Source of the DNA: Pseudomonadota bacterium
Lineage (GTDB): Bacteria; Pseudomonadota; Gammaproteobacteria; Burkholderiales; Burkholderiaceae_C
Direction: 5' to 3'
Length of the DNA stretch: 64,000 nt
Assembly (NCBI GenBank): GCA_040758375.1
Contig: JBFLWE010000020.1
Span: 1,202-65,201 of the forward strand
The notes under the pieces: model-generated
Seen by the model: only the letters and a program-made list of their open reading frames with translations
Database searches by the model: none
What the model was told of the DNA's origin: nothing
Shown: one piece after another, positions 25,569-29,852 of the stretch
Layout of the letters: every line of letters starts with the position of its first letter
How positions within the stretch are numbered: position 1 is the first letter of the stretch
Translations under genes and position numbers: made by a program

Positions 25569-27761
25569 ATGGCCATCACGATGCAAGGCGCCTGGACCAT
25601 CCGGGTCAGCGCCAAGAACGCTTCCTTCGCACAGCGCTTCGTCGTCACCGGCGCCGACAGCGGCAACGGCACCTACACCGGCACGGTGGGCACCAGCGTG
25701 TTCGTCTCGGGCGCGCAGTGGTCGCTGAACATCCAGCACCAGCCCACGGGGCAGCCCTGGCGCGACTCGGCCCAGCGCATCGGCTTTCCCGGCGTGGCCG
25801 GCGGCCTGCTGCGCTTCGAGATCCGCTCCAACGACGCCGGCGCCGACACCGACTACGACGACCTGGTGCTCAGCTGCTCGCTGCCCGCCAGTGCGTCCGA
25901 CTACGTGCTGTACGGCACGGTGAAAACCTACGCCGGCCTGTGCCTGTTCAACCCCTGCCGCGACGACTACGTGGTGCTCGACCCGCCGTACCACCTGCAG
26001 CGGCTGTGCGAGCGCTTCCCGCAGCTGTGCGACGTGCTCGCCAAGCTGTACCCCGAGCGCCTGCGCGTCCCGCCCATCCCGCTGCCCGATCCGCCGCCGG
26101 AGCTCACGCCCATCGTCATCCCCACCGGGCTGCCGGTGGTGTCCAACGGGCTGGTGTTCCAGTCGCGCATGGCGCGCGCGCCGCAAGCCGGCGCCAAGCT
26201 CGCCGACGACCAGCGCGAGGCCGAGGCCGTGGCGGCGCTGGGGCTGAACGTGCGGCGCACCGCCTTCCGCTCCAGCGCCATGGCCGCCGGCCTGGACAAG
26301 CTCTCGCGCCTGGACCTGGAGGCCATTGCCGGCATCCGCGACATCGGCATCCGCTTCCGCTGCAACGTCGAGCGCGCGCCCGGGCTGCTGCTGCGCTTCC
26401 AGGAATACGACCGCACCGCCGCCGAGAAGCTCGGCGGCCCCTACAGCGGCGCCGGCGCGCGGCAAGACCTGGGGCTGGCGGTCACCGACGAGCTGGGCAA
26501 CTACATCTTCCGCTTCAGCCCCTCGCTGGCCGACATCGCCGAAGAGACCGCCGACGTGGCCGCGGGCGAGAGCCTGGCCGCGCAGCTGCGCCCCGACGTG
26601 ATCGTGCAGGTGGTGGGCACGGGGCTGACCGCCACCTACGAGACCGCGCCCTACAACAACGTGGCCAACCTGCAGCGCATCGACCTGTGCGTGCCCTACG
26701 ACAAGGCCCACCCCAGCCGCGCCTGCGCAGGCGACCGCGTGATCCAGCGCGTGGGCGACATCGTGCTGCTGCACTCGGCCATCGACGGCACGCCCAACCA
26801 GCTCGATGCCGAAGGCCGCATCACCTGCCGCAACGCCAACGCGCCGCAGGTCGATTGCGCCGGCTGGCGCGGTGCGCTGCGCCTGTATGCCTGCTTCGGC
26901 CGGCCGGAGGCGGTGCGCTATGCCGTCTTCCACAAGCGCCCCAGCGAGACGACGTGGCACGCGGTCAACGAACCGCATGCGCTGAACTGGATCCCCAACC
27001 TCGTGGCCGGCGGCACCTCGGTGGGGCCGAGCGACCAGATGGTCACGCCCAGCGTGCCGCTGGCCGGCGGCCCGGGCCAGCCGGTGCCCACCTATGCCAA
27101 CCATGAAGGCGACCTCAACTGGATCGAAAACGACCTCAAGCTGATCCTGCACACGGCCCTGTACCGCCCCTGGGACGAGCCGGGGCCCGTGCAGTTCCAC
27201 ATCGAGGCCTACGACAGCGCCGGCAACGCGATCGCGGCCACGGCCGACACGGTCACGCTGTACATCCACAACCGCACCGCCATCGCCGGCCGGCCGCAGA
27301 AGGGCGACATCGAGTCCATCACGATGGGCAGCACCACGCTGGGCGACTGCGGCCTGTTCGTGCTGAGCGCGCCCGATGCGCCGCTCACCGTGAAGCACCG
27401 CGCGGTCGACCCCGAAGGCTTCCTGCACAGCTGGTCCTTGAGCGTCACGCGCGGCAACCACCATCCGGTGTCAACCGTGGTGGTCGGCGGCGTCACGCCC
27501 AAGGCCTTCAACGCCGCCGCCACGCCCTGCGACTTCACCGGCACGCGCGACGAGCCCACGGCCGACGTGAACGACTACGTGCTCACCGAGCTGAAGCCCA
27601 ACCCCCTGAGCGCCGACGGCCCCCACTGGCTGCCGGCGGGCCACAACTTCTGCGCCTTCGCCTTCACCCTGAGCGCCAGCGACCGCGTCACCGACGGCCG
27701 CACGGCCTATCCGCAGGTCGTGTTCTGGCAAGACCTCATCGGGTTGAGCACCGGTGCCTGA
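25569..27761 (+). CDS. hypothetical protein, 730 aa, no family recognised
   Basis: GGAGGA (25555-25560) lies 8 nt before the ATG. Codon usage is typical of the genome's genes (GC-rich third positions). Composition looks beta-rich. No signal peptide and no TM segment. Confidence 0.6.
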   Translation: MAITMQGAWTIRVSAKNASFAQRFVVTGADSGNGTYTGTVGTSVFVSGAQWSLNIQHQPTGQPWRDSAQRIGFPGVAGGLLRFEIRSNDAGADTDYDDLVLSCSLPASASDYVLYGTVKTYAGLCLFNPCRDDYVVLDPPYHLQRLCERFPQLCDVLAKLYPERLRVPPIPLPDPPPELTPIVIPTGLPVVSNGLVFQSRMARAPQAGAKLADDQREAEAVAALGLNVRRTAFRSSAMAAGLDKLSRLDLEAIAGIRDIGIRFRCNVERAPGLLLRFQEYDRTAAEKLGGPYSGAGARQDLGLAVTDELGNYIFRFSPSLADIAEETADVAAGESLAAQLRPDVIVQVVGTGLTATYETAPYNNVANLQRIDLCVPYDKAHPSRACAGDRVIQRVGDIVLLHSAIDGTPNQLDAEGRITCRNANAPQVDCAGWRGALRLYACFGRPEAVRYAVFHKRPSETTWHAVNEPHALNWIPNLVAGGTSVGPSDQMVTPSVPLAGGPGQPVPTYANHEGDLNWIENDLKLILHTALYRPWDEPGPVQFHIEAYDSAGNAIAATADTVTLYIHNRTAIAGRPQKGDIESITMGSTTLGDCGLFVLSAPDAPLTVKHRAVDPEGFLHSWSLSVTRGNHHPVSTVVVGGVTPKAFNAAATPCDFTGTRDEPTADVNDYVLTELKPNPLSADGPHWLPAGHNFCAFAFTLSASDRVTDGRTAYPQVVFWQDLIGLSTGA

Positions 27762-27776
27762 CGAAAGGAGCCGCTC

Positions 27777-28190
27777 ATGGACGCCTACCTCTCCACCCTG
27801 CTCGGCGCGCTGGCCACCTGGCGCGCCACCCACCTGCTGCATGCCGAGCACGGGCCCGGCGGCGTGTTCCAGCGCCTGCGCGGCCTGGCCCACCGCGGCC
27901 TGCTGGGCCAGGTGGTGCAGTGCTTCTACTGCCTGAGCCTGTGGGTCTCGGCGCCGATCGCGCTGATGCTCAGCCGCGACTGGTTCGAGCGCCTGCTGCT
28001 CTGGCTGGGCCTGTCGGCCGCGGCCATCGGGCTGGAGCGCGTCAACGGCCGCTGGACGCTGCCGGCCGTGGCCAGCTACTTCGAAGACCCGCCGCCCGCC
28101 CCAGTCGCCACGCACACGCACGTGGACCTGCCGGTCGGGCACATGGCCGACCCGGCGCCCGACACCGTGCCTTTCATCCAGCAGCGCTGA
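27777..28190 (+). CDS. small membrane protein, DUF1360-like
   Basis: AAGGAG lies 6 nt before the ATG, which is 15 nt after the previous stop. The pattern LATWRATHLL...VQCFYCLSLWVSAPIAL resembles the DUF1360 W-R-x-T ... C-x-x-C-x-S-x-W signature as I recall it. Confidence 0.5.
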   Translation: MDAYLSTLLGALATWRATHLLHAEHGPGGVFQRLRGLAHRGLLGQVVQCFYCLSLWVSAPIALMLSRDWFERLLLWLGLSAAAIGLERVNGRWTLPAVASYFEDPPPAPVATHTHVDLPVGHMADPAPDTVPFIQQR

Positions 28191-28476: not shown

Positions 28477-28505
28477 ACCATCCATTCCACGACAGAGGAG
28501 GCCCC

Positions 28506-29852
28506 ATGAGCCAGGACCTGATCGACTACAACGAGCTGCCCTGCTGCCCGCAGCTCGACCCCGCGCCGGTATGCGACGTGATCGACTTCCGGCGCCGGCT
28601 GGTGTTTCCCACACCGGTGCGCGGCCCCAACGAGCAGCCGGTGAAGGTGGAGGTGATCCTGCACACGCGCTTCACCCGCTGCCCCGGCCCGTTGGCGCTG
28701 GGCGAGGTCGCCTACAGCACCACGCTGCTGCCTGGCGAAAAGGTGCGCCTGGCCACCACCGACCGGCGCAGCCGCTTCAGCTTCGACAGCGAAAGCAGGC
28801 TCGCCTACCGCAGCGAGCAGCTGAGCGAGGAGCAGTACCGCCTGCGCGCGCTGCGGGCGCTGATGTCCGACGAGAACGTGGTCGACCGCGGCAACTCCCA
28901 CTACACCGAGCAGGGCAAGTGGGACTTCCATGGCGACGCCTCGGGCAGCATCGGCTTCTTCTCCGCCAGCGCCGACGCCAACGCCAACGGCAGCCACAGC
29001 GCCTCGAGCGCCAGCGACTACCTGCGCGAGCACCGCGCGCATGCCGAGATGGCCGACCACCAGAGCGTGGAGGCCACGCGCAAGGCACACAGCGTCAGCA
29101 TCGGCGAGGTGCAGCAACGCACGCATATCGAAGGCGAAAGCCAGGACCATTTCGAATCGGCCTCGCGCGAGTTCGCCAACCCCAACAAATGCCATGCAGT
29201 CACCTTCATGTTCTACCGGCTCAACAAGACCGAGACCATCCGCTTCGAGCTGGTGGCCATCGAGCGGCGCGTGCTCGACCCGGTGGCGCCGATGCCGGTG
29301 CCGGCCAATCCGTTCCGTCCGGTGGGCAGCATCGCCACCATTCCGCAGGAACTGCCGGCCACGCACGCCAAGCGCAGCGAAGCGTTGCACCGCGGCATCG
29401 AGGCCGACCAGCAGGTGCAGTTGCAGGCGCTCGACCCGCTGCCCGGCGGCGCCCCGCGCGCGCTGCTGGGCAACCGGCTGGTCACCGGCACCGCACTGGC
29501 CGCCGCGCTGGGCGAGGCGCAGCCGCTGGCCGACGCGCTGCGCCAGCAGGCCCTGAAATTCGTCGATGCACAGCTGGCGCAGCAGGGCCTGCTCGCCAAG
29601 GACGGCAGCGTCTCGCGCGAGCTGCTCGCGCGCGTGAACTACGAGCGCCGCACCAGCGTGCCCACCGCCGGCGTCATCGTGAAGAGCTGCATGGACCAAT
29701 GCGGCATCTGCGAACCCGAGGTGGAGCGCCTGCACGAGCTCGAACTGCAGCGCCTGGAGCTGCAGAACAAGCTGCTGGCGCGCCAGATCGAGCTGCTGGA
29801 CAAGCACCGCGACTACCGTTGCTGCCCGGCGGGCGAGGTGCCCACACCCTGA
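28506..29852 (+). CDS. hypothetical protein, 448 aa, terminal Cys clusters and C-terminal coiled coil
   Basis: GAGGAG lies 5 nt before the ATG at 28506 (Met100 of ORF 28209..29852). LPCCPQLDPAPVCDV sits at the N-terminus. KSCMDQCGICEPE, a heptad-like ERLHELELQRLELQNKLLARQIELL stretch and YRCCPAG sit at the C-terminus. Confidence 0.6.
   Translation: MSQDLIDYNELPCCPQLDPAPVCDVIDFRRRLVFPTPVRGPNEQPVKVEVILHTRFTRCPGPLALGEVAYSTTLLPGEKVRLATTDRRSRFSFDSESRLAYRSEQLSEEQYRLRALRALMSDENVVDRGNSHYTEQGKWDFHGDASGSIGFFSASADANANGSHSASSASDYLREHRAHAEMADHQSVEATRKAHSVSIGEVQQRTHIEGESQDHFESASREFANPNKCHAVTFMFYRLNKTETIRFELVAIERRVLDPVAPMPVPANPFRPVGSIATIPQELPATHAKRSEALHRGIEADQQVQLQALDPLPGGAPRALLGNRLVTGTALAAALGEAQPLADALRQQALKFVDAQLAQQGLLAKDGSVSRELLARVNYERRTSVPTAGVIVKSCMDQCGICEPEVERLHELELQRLELQNKLLARQIELLDKHRDYRCCPAGEVPTP

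Follow-up and report, generated by a model that had tools for sequence, protein, structure and literature searches.

A recurrent, modular four-gene bacterial operon that may encode a sugar-binding, membrane-acting protein complex

Four adjacent genes, here called A, B, C, and D, in a 64,000-nucleotide stretch of a Burkholderiales contig (the window) form a genuine operon whose genes recur jointly in five or more bacterial phyla. Each of the four is genuine and has many homologues, and their locus consists of three modules that are each also found apart, i.e., a gene pair for a TPR protein with a helix-turn-helix (HTH) domain and a clostripain-family (C11) protease, the trio A-B-C, and D. We tentatively regard the cassette as encoding a sugar-binding, membrane-acting protein complex, and it is possible, though doubtful, that D is a latent membrane-perforating effector and A its lectin-bearing partner. 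The initial annotation had singled out the four genes as a candidate undescribed system, an assessment that stands in that three of the four products fall outside described families.

Structure and surroundings of the operon

The genes lie on the forward strand at 25569-27761 (A, 730 aa), 27777-28190 (B, 137 aa), 28207-28476 (C, 89 aa), and 28506-29852 (D, 448 aa, with its ATG at 28506), as read from the ORF list and the sequence, with intergenic gaps of 15 (A/B), 16 (B/C), and 29 nt (C/D). A Shine-Dalgarno site was read before each ATG, namely GGAGGA 8 nt upstream for A, AAGGAG 6 nt for B, GGAGGA 6 nt for C, and GAGGAG 5 nt for D. These readings confirm what the initial annotation had described, i.e., four same-strand ORFs of these positions, sizes, and gaps, each preceded by such a site at 5-8 nt. 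Its further claim that they make up one unit holds insofar as the four are compact, but the unit is divisible into a tight A-B-C and a separable D.

Upstream, the C11 cysteine protease gene (23778..25358, forward strand; Pfam Peptidase_C11, 49 bits against a cut-off of 25.8) ends 210 nt before A in the same orientation, as had been reported, and inspection of its product located catalytic-type motifs (His in GHGAG, residue 134; Cys in NNCFNM, residue 226). This protein has no hydrophobic segment or export signal, and phmmer found no PDB match for it at E = 0.01 or better. Divergently transcribed from it is the gene for the TPR protein with a C-terminal HTH (21373..23688, reverse strand; Pfam TPR_12, 63 bits; HTH_20, weak). 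The protease had been tied to the operon, and it is indeed a recurrent neighbour, but a likely intrinsic terminator (25392..25430, forward strand) separates it from A. This is a hairpin (-35 kcal/mol, z = -5.5) followed by UUCUUUAU, with a U-rich tail, and Ideonella keeps it with a different loop (-29.6 kcal/mol, z = -5.0). Because a terminator-like hairpin conserved in Ideonella lies between C11 and A, A-D are probably a transcription unit of their own, apart from the C11 gene. A search for a sigma-70-like site for A-D found none; a candidate promoter lies at 25483..25516 (forward strand), where the blocks CGCGTGGnGATGGGAACGC and TGCAATG align with Ideonella, and the first block shows a GG-N10-GC spacing in this intergenic alignment. 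This candidate may be of sigma-54 type. G+C-rich hairpins 3' of D (29853..29946, forward strand; -59.3 kcal/mol, z = -3.5, no U tract) are a possible end of the operon.

The initial annotation had placed the locus in an accessory, conflict-type block and read its context as that of defence or specialised-peptide systems. That reading of the context was not borne out, as gyrB-dnaN-dnaA lies ~4 kb away, the G+C content of the cassette is host-like, neither A nor D has a copy in the plasmid and phage collections searched (nor D in IMG/VR), and the PADLOC search that had been proposed returned no match for any of the six proteins (TPR, C11, and A-D). A role for the cassette in defence or peptide (RiPP) biosynthesis is therefore not supported, nothing tying it to either.

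Recurrence of the modules across phyla

D is the most conserved gene of the cassette and also the most widespread: clustering at 90% leaves at least 1700 homologues and clustering at 50% leaves 485 representatives, and 335 matching stretches occur in a collection of 185,579 species, one genome each. Its distribution is patchy and at odds with phylogeny. A has at least 308 homologues, none of them named. The gene order is A-B-C-D in Pseudomonadota and D-A-B-C in Bacteroidota, Nitrospirota, and Acidobacteriota, with a divergent D-A pair in Chloroflexota; single groups show D-A-B-C (Chitinophagaceae), D-A-B (Nitrospira), D-x-B-C (Bryobacteraceae), and B-C-D (one gammaproteobacterium). In Candidatus Leptofilum, where D is just 26% identical, the D-A pair is still present, the gene downstream of D matching the A profile over its full length (E = 4e-194). 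The earlier suggestion was to fall if the four genes did not co-occur in other genomes; they do, in two orders and several phyla.

Within these loci, A-B-C is a tight trio and D is separable. Of 65 evaluable loci, 42 have B and/or C behind A; C is invariably directly 3' of B in the loci examined, and the two adjoin A or D in dozens of loci besides the one in the window. A is adjacent in 33 of 80 D-centred loci (its c10 subtype counted), and D is solitary in about half of them, often amid housekeeping genes. Two aspects of this pattern count against D as a membrane perforator: just ~10 of the 80 loci centred on A have D as a neighbour, and solitary D stands beside ribosomal, ClpB, or DsbA genes without protease or A. 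That the four genes are chance neighbours kept together by local synteny, and do not cooperate, is nonetheless scarcely credible. D and A-B-C are each found without the other, and extended synteny with the closest relative, Ideonella, proves nothing alone, but the genes adjoin one another in two permuted orders, amid different flanks, in Pseudomonadota, Bacteroidota, Nitrospirota, Acidobacteriota, and Chloroflexota, D elsewhere carries a fused domain of A, and the gaps of 15-29 nt each hold a Shine-Dalgarno site.

The TPR-C11 pair is a facultative module, found beside D in just 6 of 80 genome loci. Six Chloroflexota sequences, namely five genome loci (L006-L009, L012) and one further contig (L087), show the arrangement TPR<-, C11->, D->, while Ideonella and metagenome contig L164 share with the window the full order TPR<-, C11, A-B-C-D. 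The co-occurrence that had been put forward for checking is thus real. In Ideonella and Chloroflexota, TPR homologues of 47-58% identity occupy the corresponding place next to C11 and D, and C11 copies ~60% identical adjoin D in Chloroflexota. Between the window and Chloroflexota, identities of ~60% (C11) and ~48-52% (TPR) count in favour of an effector role for D.

Features of the gene products

A is a multi-domain protein made in the cytoplasm. A hydropathy scan agreed with the earlier description of it as having no signal peptide or TM segment, and A, C, and D all proved free of 19-residue stretches with Kyte-Doolittle hydropathy >=1.6 and of hydrophobic N-termini. Pfam, NCBIfam, PADLOC, and PHROGs gave no match for A. 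Its N-terminal domain (residues 1-112; 25569..25904, forward strand), with the acidic motif SNDAGADTDYDD at 25827-25862, is LecB/PA-IIL-like: phmmer against PDB returned LecB at E = 0.064, and 10 of the 13 matches of a domain profile were PA-IIL-family lectins at E = 0.1-1.3, all of these below significance, and Pfam PF07472 was not matched. The invariant D89, D93, D95, and D98 align with LecB E95, D99, D101, and D104. This LecB-like domain is fused directly to D in P0363 and P0397, two proteins that share 85% identity and come from two data sets. Farther along, the proline-rich motif PPIPLPDPPPE (26070..26102, forward strand; invariant P171, P173, P181, and P185) hardly varies within the family, and the c10 subtype has it too, as HPIPIPDPPPF. 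The C-terminal region (residues 431-714; 26859..27710, forward strand) is common to both partner-protein subtypes, aligning with c10 residues 412-737 in hhalign (probability 98.3%, E = 2e-14).

B is a small DUF1360 membrane protein and the only cassette member with a family assignment, which the initial annotation had made weakly and which is firmer than claimed (Pfam, 24.9 bits against a cut-off of 21; phrog_781 in PHROGs, E = 7.8e-5). Its hydrophobic segment spans residues 46-65, the family alignment shows the conserved motifs WRxTHLLxxEDGP and LLDCFYC, and its conserved loop is rich in basic residues, a point in favour of a membrane-perforating complex. C begins M-C-N-C-G-x-R-R, the conserved N-terminus M-C/S-x-C-G fixing its start codon, and has a conserved C-terminal domain of ~48 residues (FEYxGxTxLTVxGxxxGxxYRFxxPG...VDxRD). 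C has no match in Pfam, NCBIfam, PADLOC, PHROGs, or PDB and D none in the first four (for Pfam, in 37 diverse members), in agreement with the earlier remark that the two match nothing known; sequence searches of PDB with the cassette proteins gave nothing significant.

The lectin-like motif and the cysteines could also belong to a cell-envelope or matrix complex in which A acts as an adhesin or matrix binder of the calcium-dependent lectin type, like LecB in Pseudomonas, with B as its membrane anchor, C as an adaptor, and D as a coiled-coil scaffold cross-linking via terminal Cys-Cys pairs, serving adhesion, biofilm, or sheath building rather than killing. The many invariant cysteines of A and D, with CxxC in B and CxC in C, could form extracellular disulfides, most of the taxa are environmental bacteria that grow as filaments or flocs (Anaerolineae, Chitinophagaceae, the Ideonella group), high conservation fits a structural protein, and LecB itself acts at the cell surface despite having no signal peptide. 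We nevertheless consider such a complex unlikely, as A, C, and D have no export signal and no secretion genes recur nearby, the cytoplasmic C11 module is left unexplained, D is solitary in roughly half of the loci, and the lectin assignment is below significance.

Following the structural check that had been suggested, D was modelled with AlphaFold2 (pLDDT 70.2). The four strands of the model are 16-30 residues long; it also contains two helical inserts, a loop of low confidence (124-161), and a helix (404-437) with pLDDT ~90. D is predicted to be a long beta-sheet that bears a conserved glycine/serine-rich amphipathic hairpin and ends in a coiled coil. Foldseek found no fold match in PDB (best E = 0.078, TM-score 0.09). 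Both runs were topped almost solely by beta-pore-forming toxins (aerolysin, Tpp80, Cry78, BinAB, leukocidins, NetF), none significant, and an elongated beta shape may be all that this list reflects. The glycine/serine-rich loop (residues 138-170; 28917..29015, forward strand; pLDDT <50), a candidate amphipathic beta-hairpin with an aromatic FF tip, alternates W-F-G-A-G-I-F with D-H-D-S-S-G and then A-A-A-A with S-S-D-N. An aromatic plus GG hairpin, [WF]x[FT]xG...[FIL][FG]GG...G, is kept in members 24-47% identical; against a pore counts that the loop is low-complexity, with a second strand just weakly hydrophobic. The heptad-repeat helix (residues 404-437; 29715..29828, forward strand) ends YRCCP, and the cysteine cluster CMDQCGICEP (29688-29717) lies ahead of it; C395, C399, C402, C439, and C440 are invariant.

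The abundance of invariant Cys and His in D likewise counts against a pore and suggests metal sites or an enzyme. D could then be a cytoplasmic enzyme or stress protein with Cys/His metal sites, A-B-C a membrane-bound accessory complex, and the resemblance to pore-formers superficial. The near-invariant residues C13, H179, E211, E217, R221, N225, N227, C229, H230, C399, and E403, the CxxC of B and CxC of C, the very high conservation of D, and solitary D amid housekeeping genes, once by a DsbA-family gene and once by lexA, would fit a metal or redox protein. We judge this quite improbable, however, as D matches no enzyme family or fold, so patchy a spread is unusual for a housekeeping enzyme, and the lectin-like head and its fusion to D are left unexplained.

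Proposed mechanism and comparison with known systems

Under the membrane-perforation proposal, D would be a latent effector of a new family. Made in the cytoplasm, it would be soluble, an elongated beta-sheet protein forming oligomers via its C-terminal coiled coil, and, when activated, would insert the amphipathic hairpin (residues 138-170) into a lipid bilayer; where C11 is present, activation may be cleavage by C11. A would bring a calcium-dependent, LecB-like sugar-binding head and its conserved C-terminal domain to D's site, B would anchor or release the complex, and C would be its adaptor. The target would be the membrane of the cell itself, or that of a grazer or competitor. What the analysis shows is the genes, their modular co-occurrence, the joining of the A head to D, the lack of export signals, and a predicted shape for D; sugar binding, oligomerisation, membrane insertion, protease activation, and the target are inferred. 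In favour of the proposal count the recurrence of the genes in two orders and several phyla, the persistence of the D-A pair in Candidatus Leptofilum, the P0363 and P0397 fusions, the modelled form of D with its conserved hairpin, and the pairings with protective antigen and with the toxins heading the Foldseek lists, though these pairings are not significant. Against this proposal, D is 64-87% identical across phyla, unusually conserved for a toxin, A would be a lectin needing extracellular calcium and glycans yet has no export signal, no structural or sequence match of D to pore-formers reaches significance, and PADLOC, as above, does not match the cassette.

The same genes might instead act in gasdermin-type anti-phage abortive infection, with the TPR protein sensing, C11 cleaving D, and D killing the cell from within. 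Bacterial gasdermin operons pair a gasdermin with a caspase-like protease, often with TPR, WD40, or NACHT sensors; here too a cytoplasmic putative pore-former lies by a clan-CD cysteine protease and a repeat protein, D lacks a signal peptide, has a cysteine pair at its N-terminus, and spreads horizontally, and a Schlafen/AlbA_2 gene is near in two Chloroflexota loci. Such a role is very unlikely all the same, given the blank PADLOC result, the presence of the protease module at so few D loci, the setting of D and A-B-C mostly amid housekeeping genes rather than defence islands, a TPR protein whose DNA-binding HTH looks regulatory, the lack of a role for a lectin partner in cell-autonomous suicide, and the absence of the diversification typical of defence effectors. 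D as a gasdermin proper was rejected, PADLOC models and fold search both being negative, and the protease here is C11, not C14/CHAT.

Among characterised proteins, the protease resembles clostripain and PmC11 in exceeding the Pfam threshold and in its His-Gly and Cys motifs, but differs in lacking a signal peptide and in having a PMGSPLL x3 insert located between the catalytic residues. B shares a CxxC motif at the membrane helix with DUF1360 proteins (Pfam PF07098), whose function, to our knowledge, is not known, and also resembles small phage membrane proteins (phrog_781); its subfamily is marked by a fixed place after A and before C. LecB-family lectins are calcium-dependent and bind fucose or mannose, a free C-terminal glycine completing the LecB site. 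The 112-residue N-domain of A is similar in size to LecB/PA-IIL lectins (Pseudomonas LecB, Ralstonia RS-IIL, sponge thrombocorticin), opens with a similar strand (TMQGxWTV vs ATQGVFTL), closes with SNDxGxDxDY(N/D)DLVL vs SEDGTDNDYNDAVV, matches the calcium ligands with its four invariant aspartates, and, like LecB, has no signal peptide; unlike LecB, with overall similarity below significance (E = 0.06-1.3), it is followed by ~600 residues, making a free C-terminal glycine unusable.

For D, the profile of residues 123-179 aligns in a PDB search with the membrane-insertion loop (2beta2-2beta3) that anthrax protective antigen has in common with related binary-toxin B components (HGNAEVHASFFDIGGSVSAGFSNSNSST), matching at HG, FF, and the serine-rich second strand, though not significantly (E = 2.7-7) and over a low-complexity stretch, the rest of D being unlike protective antigen. 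Aerolysin-type and binary toxins (aerolysin, BinAB/Tpp, Cry35, LSL, natterins), which top both Foldseek lists, differ from D, which has no significant fold or sequence match to them (TM-score <=0.14), a loop between helices rather than inside the sheet, a C-terminal coiled coil, ten conserved cysteines, and far higher conservation. What D shares with them is a modelled elongated sheet whose strands are very long, plus an amphipathic loop rich in glycine and serine; it is made without a signal peptide as are Bin and Cry35 toxins, and a nearby protease could serve as activator, proteolytic licensing being the rule for aerolysin, protective antigen, and gasdermins. Aerolysin-type toxins join a lectin head to a pore-forming body; in D systems the lectin-like module is supplied in trans by A or in cis, as in P0363 and P0397, whose fusion of lectin-like head and D reproduces this "lectin head plus pore-forming body" layout.

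Layout and transcription of the cassette

Four genes, here named A, B, C, and D, follow one another on the same strand at 25569-27761 (A, 730 aa), 27777-28190 (B, 137 aa), 28207-28476 (C, 89 aa), and 28506-29852 (D, 448 aa), with intergenic gaps of only 15, 16, and 29 nt and with the Shine-Dalgarno sites GGAGGA, AAGGAG, GGAGGA, and GAGGAG lying 8, 6, 6, and 5 nt from their respective starts. These coordinates, gaps, and sites, read from the ORF list and the sequence, bear out the compact same-strand unit proposed in the initial annotation. Because long spurious ORFs are common at a genome G+C of ~70% (the ORF list holds many long overlapping ones), conservation was the decisive criterion for real genes: database relatives number at least 308 for A and at least 1700 for D, while B and C adjoin such relatives in dozens of loci. 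The source is an uncultured Pseudomonadota MAG in which NCBI labels A, C, and D as hypothetical and B as DUF1360.

Upstream, the gene of a clostripain-family (C11) protease ends at 25358, 210 nt 5' of A. Between the two genes lies a hairpin (25392-25430; -35 kcal/mol, z = -5.5) with UUCUUUAU directly 3' of it, and Ideonella sp. BN130291 keeps the same stem with another loop (L003, ~6817-6850; -29.6 kcal/mol, z = -5.0). With its U-rich tail, this hairpin is likely an intrinsic terminator splitting C11 from A-D, and A-D are thus probably a transcription unit of their own. Further 3', the window and Ideonella have two sequence blocks in common (25483-25516), and the conserved block TGGAGATGGGAACGC, with GG-N10-GC spacing at 25487-25501, could be a candidate promoter of the sigma-54 type; no enhancer-binding protein gene was seen near it, and a scan for sigma-70-like promoters returned no site. 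Hairpins 3' of D are G+C-rich and have no U tract, and an Rfam scan of 21000-31500 gave no match.

The cassette has a host-like G+C (0.715 versus 0.65-0.73 across the window), is surrounded by no tRNA genes, and lies in no obvious island. It is followed by a PAS histidine kinase, a CHASE histidine kinase, and, on the minus strand, gyrB (34044-36563), dnaN (36631-37737), and dnaA (38045-40036), a row indicating that the window spans the chromosomal replication-origin region, with the cassette ~4 kb away. The whole block around the cassette is common to Ideonella, where a PEP-CTERM-domain protein absent from the window stands between D and the PAS histidine kinase (L002/L003, 11446-12120). On the 5' side (14309-21030), a 1195-aa fusion of an ABC-2-type membrane domain and an M1 peptidase domain, found in Ideonella too, is accompanied by an HlyD-family protein (18523-19962) and a short ABC ATPase ORF that covers part of the domain (20260-21030); these genes may be what the initial annotation called a peptide-export relic.

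Distribution and modularity

Among genomes representing 185,579 species (one per species), 335 stretches encode relatives of D, in Chloroflexota, Acidobacteriota, Nitrospirota, Actinomycetota, Bacteroidota (Chitinophagaceae), several Pseudomonadota, and one Methanotrichaceae archaeon, whose MAG homologue lies at L036, 7374-8648 (54% identity); no other archaeon is represented in the best 80 loci. Cultured carriers are Ideonella sp. BN130291, Niabella aurantiaca, Paludibaculum fermentans, and Longilinea arvoryzae. The window D shares 72-73% identity with its counterparts in Vicinamibacterales and Anaerolineae, but only 61% with that of Thiomonas, 60% with that of Rhodanobacter, and ~50% with that of Methylophilaceae, an order out of step with taxonomy that indicates horizontal transfer. 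An exhaustive search of 1.84 billion representatives yielded 485 proteins at E = 0.001 or better, which marks the family as small and self-contained. No copy of D was found in IMG/VR, and the phage and plasmid collections contained neither A nor D. In BFVD, D has one real fold match, a 642-aa Yasminevirus protein (A0A5K0U6Q4, E = 3.4e-15); this giant-virus protein is itself uncharacterised and leaves the match silent on the function of D, and the family may reach beyond prokaryotes. Several relatives, including P0307, P0290, and P0311, are rich in Asn and Ser and resemble proteins of AT-rich eukaryotes or giant viruses.

Clustering all neighbouring ORFs at 80 D-centred genome loci showed which families recur with D across phyla, namely a large protein of ~750 aa (33 of the 80 loci) and B and/or C (27 of 80), with no others beyond these. 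There are two subtypes of the large partner, A proper and c10; their N-terminal parts are unlike, and they overlap only in the C-terminal ~300 residues (hhalign 98.3%, E = 2e-14) and a PxPxPDPPP motif. Gene order varies: A-B-C-D in the window and Ideonella, D-A-B-C in Chitinophagaceae (flanked by nadB-like and ispG-like housekeeping genes), D-A-B in Nitrospira, D-x-B-C in Bryobacteraceae, and B-C-D in one gammaproteobacterium. In the chloroflexotan Candidatus Leptofilum, the gene 3' of a D only 26% identical to the window D encodes a protein homologous to A over its full length (E = 4e-194); the pairing thus outlasts deep divergence of D, while the disagreement between the A and D phylogenies indicates that the modules have been re-assorted. 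Further, a 526-aa D relative (P0363) bears an A-type N-terminal domain directly N-terminal of D, and a 529-aa protein from another data set (P0397), 85% identical to it, has the same architecture. No other fusion of this kind is present in the best 150 representatives, and as a Rosetta-stone case it indicates that D and the lectin-like head act on the same thing. That A-D stand side by side by chance is, given this recurrence, hardly credible.

D is also found alone, in about 40 of the 80 D-centred loci, where annotated neighbours include lexA with ribosomal protein genes, a DsbA-family gene, ClpB with EF-P, and GPP34-like genes. In Longilinea arvoryzae a solitary D is divergent from a LexA-family repressor gene (L001, 9029-9748), which hints at SOS control of D in that organism. 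Viewed from A, at 80 loci from a metagenome scan with an A profile, B and/or C lie directly 3' of A in 42 of the 65 loci with enough downstream sequence, while D adjoins A in ~10 of the 80; where both flanks are ample (21 loci), D adjoins A in two and A stands alone in six. One metagenome contig (L164) has the complete order of the window, from a divergent TPR gene through C11, A, B, and C to D, and another locus (L094) has A-B-C and no D within 6 kb. Hence, A-B-C form a tight trio and D is separable but often joined to it. No relationship to A was found for the 802-aa, 689-aa, and 748-aa proteins of L063, L022, and L092, or for a 1285-aa metzincin-like protein of Chloroflexota, all of which lie 3' of D.

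Two further genes belong to this picture. The C11 protease (23778..25358, plus strand) matches Pfam Peptidase_C11 with 49 bits against a cut-off of 25.8, and the motifs GHGAG at residue 134 and NNCFNM at residue 226, seen by inspection, contain its putative catalytic His and Cys; the protein has no hydrophobic segment or hydrophobic N-terminus. The divergent gene (TPR; 21373..23688, minus strand) encodes TPR repeats and, by Pfam, a weak C-terminal HTH. The order of divergent TPR, C11, and D recurs in five Chloroflexota genome loci (L006-L009 and L012) and in L087, with ~60% identity to the window for C11 and ~48-52% for TPR. These three are the sole genes that those loci and the window have in common, which argues that the C11-TPR pair travels with D; in the window, A-B-C are in effect inserted between C11 and D. 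C11 is, at the same time, absent from 74 of the 80 D-centred genome loci.

Three perfect copies of PMGSPLL lie in tandem in C11 (24294-24356) between the His and Cys motifs. In other C11 enzymes, the region between the catalytic His and Cys is the site of activating self-cleavage. Some Anaerolineae loci have additional genes: a 177-184-aa protein with PPIPIPIPWPGPDP between C11 and D (L084, 8225-8758; L087, 5610-6164), then 3' of D a large secreted protein with the zinc-protease motif HEIGHTLGRAH and BACON/PKD-like domains (L084, 10584-14441; L087, 11646-14555), followed by a Schlafen/AlbA_2 gene. The 177-aa protein is present in only some TPR-C11-D loci; its proline motif had made it a candidate relative of A, and comparison showed the two to be unrelated, while a weak Pfam hint of GPP34 was rejected as noise.

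The initial annotation is partly borne out: A-D are a real, conserved, and uncharacterised unit tied to C11 and TPR, but one that is modular, not indivisible.

The four proteins

As whole proteins, A, C, and D had no match in Pfam, NCBIfam, PADLOC, or PHROGs. Pfam searches with six fragments of A and two of D were likewise empty, and those with 36 A homologues, 37 diverse D homologues, and 10 divergent D relatives gave nothing credible. The weak Pfam hints of DUF6902 (E = 0.019, four of 37 members), DNA_pol_alpha_N, FixH, and Y_Y_Y were rejected as noise. Sequence and profile searches of the PDB with A, its N-domain, C, D, and C11 produced no significant true match. A, C, and D all lack a hydrophobic segment or hydrophobic N-terminus.

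The N-domain of A bears a likeness to LecB (PA-IIL), which a single-sequence PDB search placed on residues 28-106 at E = 0.064. A profile built from 17 isolated N-domains gave 13 PDB matches, of which 10 were PA-IIL-family lectins (thrombocorticin, LecB variants, RS-IIL), at E = 0.1-1.3, and hhalign gave the pairing with LecB a probability of only 15%. Pfam found no PF07472 in A or in the 17 domains and weak DUF4114 matches in four of the 17, so that no search by Pfam, PDB, or hhalign reached significance for the PA-IIL/LecB family. In the HMMER alignment, D89, D93, D95, D97, and D98 of A fall on E95, D99, D101, N103, and D104 of LecB, its calcium-ligand residues; D89, D93, D95, and D98 are invariant in the 36 homologues and in the 17 domains, and the consensus SNDxGGDxDYNDLVL is close to LecB SEDGTDNDYNDAVV. 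Since the invariant aspartates align while the match scores stay below significance, the domain appears LecB-like at the level of the calcium motif and is not a proven member of the lectin family. The calcium/sugar site of LecB is completed by the adjacent subunit, which contributes the free carboxylate of its C-terminal glycine, whereas the head of A is N-terminal with ~600 residues after it and thus has no such free end. The rest of A had no match; a TDExGNYIFRF motif seen by eye suggests a prealbumin-like sandwich.

B matches DUF1360 (PF07098; residues 28-83, 24.9 bits against a cut-off of 21, E = 2.1e-5), in agreement with the NCBI annotation of an identical protein as DUF1360 domain-containing; its only other family match is phrog_781, a phage relative with no known function. 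It has a clear membrane helix at residues 46-65, two weaker hydrophobic segments, a polar C-terminus, and conserved WRxTHLLxxEDGP, a basic loop, and LLDCFYC, which opens the clearest helix. By the positive-inside rule, the conserved loop would be cytoplasmic. C, always 3' of B and sometimes overlapping it, conserves an N-terminal M-C/S-x-C-G-x-K/R-R and a 48-residue C-terminal domain. Its apparent PDB match, to de novo TIM barrels at E = 7.6e-5, is spurious and arises from adding up one short motif across the repeats.

For D, a first AlphaFold2 model from 18 close sequences was poor (pLDDT 59.5). A second was built on 37 sequences as distant as 24% identity and scored pLDDT 70.2, with a core above 85, and pTM 0.59. 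In this second model, strands 24-39, 45-74, 230-256, and 379-400 form a very long sheet, accompanied by helices 108-121 and 166-194, a helical variable region (290-377), a C-terminal helix with heptad leucines (404-437), and low-confidence loops at 124-161, 262-284, and 304-337. Foldseek against the PDB returned nothing at E = 0.001 or better, and with either model no fold likeness to a solved beta-pore-forming toxin. Such toxins do fill the top of both lists, with proaerolysin best (E = 0.078, probability 0.03, TM-score 0.09), which may reflect elongated sheets only.

Residues 138-170 of D (KWDFHGDASGSIGFFSASADANANGSHSASSAS) alternate W-F-G-A-G-I-F with D-H-D-S-S-G and then A-A-A-A with S-S-D-N, and distant members have, for example, SFETKGKTSGAIQSFFGGASLTVTGSYDAEST or NWNAGGSAGLDLGFISIGGGGGGGGSSSNSNS in the same place. 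The alternation and an aromatic residue plus GG turn are kept in the 37 diverse members, and among close homologues the beta-moment ranks in the top 1-4%; against this stand the low complexity of the stretch and a second strand that is weakly hydrophobic. Judged by the pattern, the stretch is a candidate amphipathic hairpin with an aromatic residue ahead of a glycine turn; the amphipathic insertion hairpins of aerolysin-type and other beta-pore-forming toxins measure ~2 x 12-15 residues. The D profile aligns it to HGNAEVHASFFDIGGSVSAGFSNSNSST of anthrax protective antigen, the membrane-insertion loop of that toxin, at E = 2.7-7 and over a low-complexity stretch, so we treat the alignment as a lead and not as evidence of homology.

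Close homologues of D also keep ten cysteines (PCCP 12-15, C23, C59, C229, CMDQCGICEP 395-404, and YRCCP 437-441) and nine histidines, and family-wide the polar residues C13, E49, E78, R87, D94, H179, E211, E217, R221, N225, N227, C229, H230, K241, R255, C399, and E403 are near-invariant. These residues may act as metal clasps, form an active site, or lie at interfaces, and they are the main support for reading D as an enzyme or metalloprotein; that D is a metal or redox protein seems to us rather unlikely.

Possible modes of action

The censuses can be drawn together as a modular system in which a core D would be able to work alone, a partner A with exchangeable heads would be accompanied by the membrane protein B and the small protein C, and the regulator-protease pair of TPR and C11 would be optional. 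We tentatively favour the possibility that D is a latent membrane-perforating effector and A its glycan-binding targeting or assembly partner. The target could lie on either side of the envelope: the lectin head favours an external one, the membrane of a grazer or of a competitor after lysis, and the lack of export signals together with a cytoplasmic protease favours an internal one, the membrane of the cell itself. No export signal or other route to a target membrane was found for D or A, and no secretion genes recur near D- or A-centred loci. A-D might instead form an envelope or matrix complex, a reading we hold to be doubtful.

A dedicated anti-phage system appears improbable. No evidence was found for the defence role raised in the initial annotation, and a search of PADLOC-DB 2.0 with A-D, C11, and TPR yielded no family up to E = 1. 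The probability left over from the perforator, envelope or matrix, metal or redox, anti-phage, and chance-adjacency readings belongs to something else. The expectation that the unit is undescribed holds: the families and the cassette are absent from all libraries and papers searched, including the literature on DUF1360, on PA-IIL with pore-forming, and on clostripain/TPR neighbourhoods. A, C, and D belong to families of hundreds to thousands of members with no name, Pfam model, or significant match to a solved structure, nor did the fold search (D only) find one, and the linkage of A, B, C, and D is a gene cassette in no catalogue. What is new here is the protein families and the cassette, and the way in which they act may yet turn out to be a familiar one.

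In its most specific form, which we offer as speculation and think unlikely to hold in full, the perforator reading would make D a new class with a fold unlike aerolysin, MACPF/CDC, gasdermin, or protective antigen. Such a D would be cytoplasmic, held inactive by Cys/metal clasps and a coiled coil, licensed by C11 or other cues, and aimed by interchangeable partner heads (LecB-like in A, different in c10), and it would have spread horizontally in environmental bacteria, one archaeon, and giant viruses. Should D form pores, the few membrane-perforating machines would gain a new fold, and D with its partner would offer a simple, portable effector-plus-targeting pair; should it be a metal enzyme or scaffold, it would still be among the most conserved uncharacterised proteins of five phyla (Chloroflexota, Acidobacteriota, Bacteroidota, Nitrospirota, and Pseudomonadota). 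Either way, testable parts are gained, namely a putative calcium/sugar-binding head, a conserved hairpin, cysteine clusters, and a candidate protease-substrate pair.

Two known kinds of system invite comparison. Class I holins, considered for B, are small proteins with three transmembrane helices and a charged cytoplasmic C-terminus, encoded together with a lysis or release function; B has one clear and two weaker hydrophobic segments and a polar C-terminus, and no endolysin is nearby. Bacterial gasdermin systems differ in that no PADLOC model covers the six proteins and no gasdermin is among the Foldseek matches. As for the caspase-like protease that adjoins bacterial gasdermins, a clan-CD C11 enzyme is adjacent in the window, in Ideonella, in contig L164, and in six Chloroflexota loci, and is missing from 74 of the 80 D-centred genome loci.
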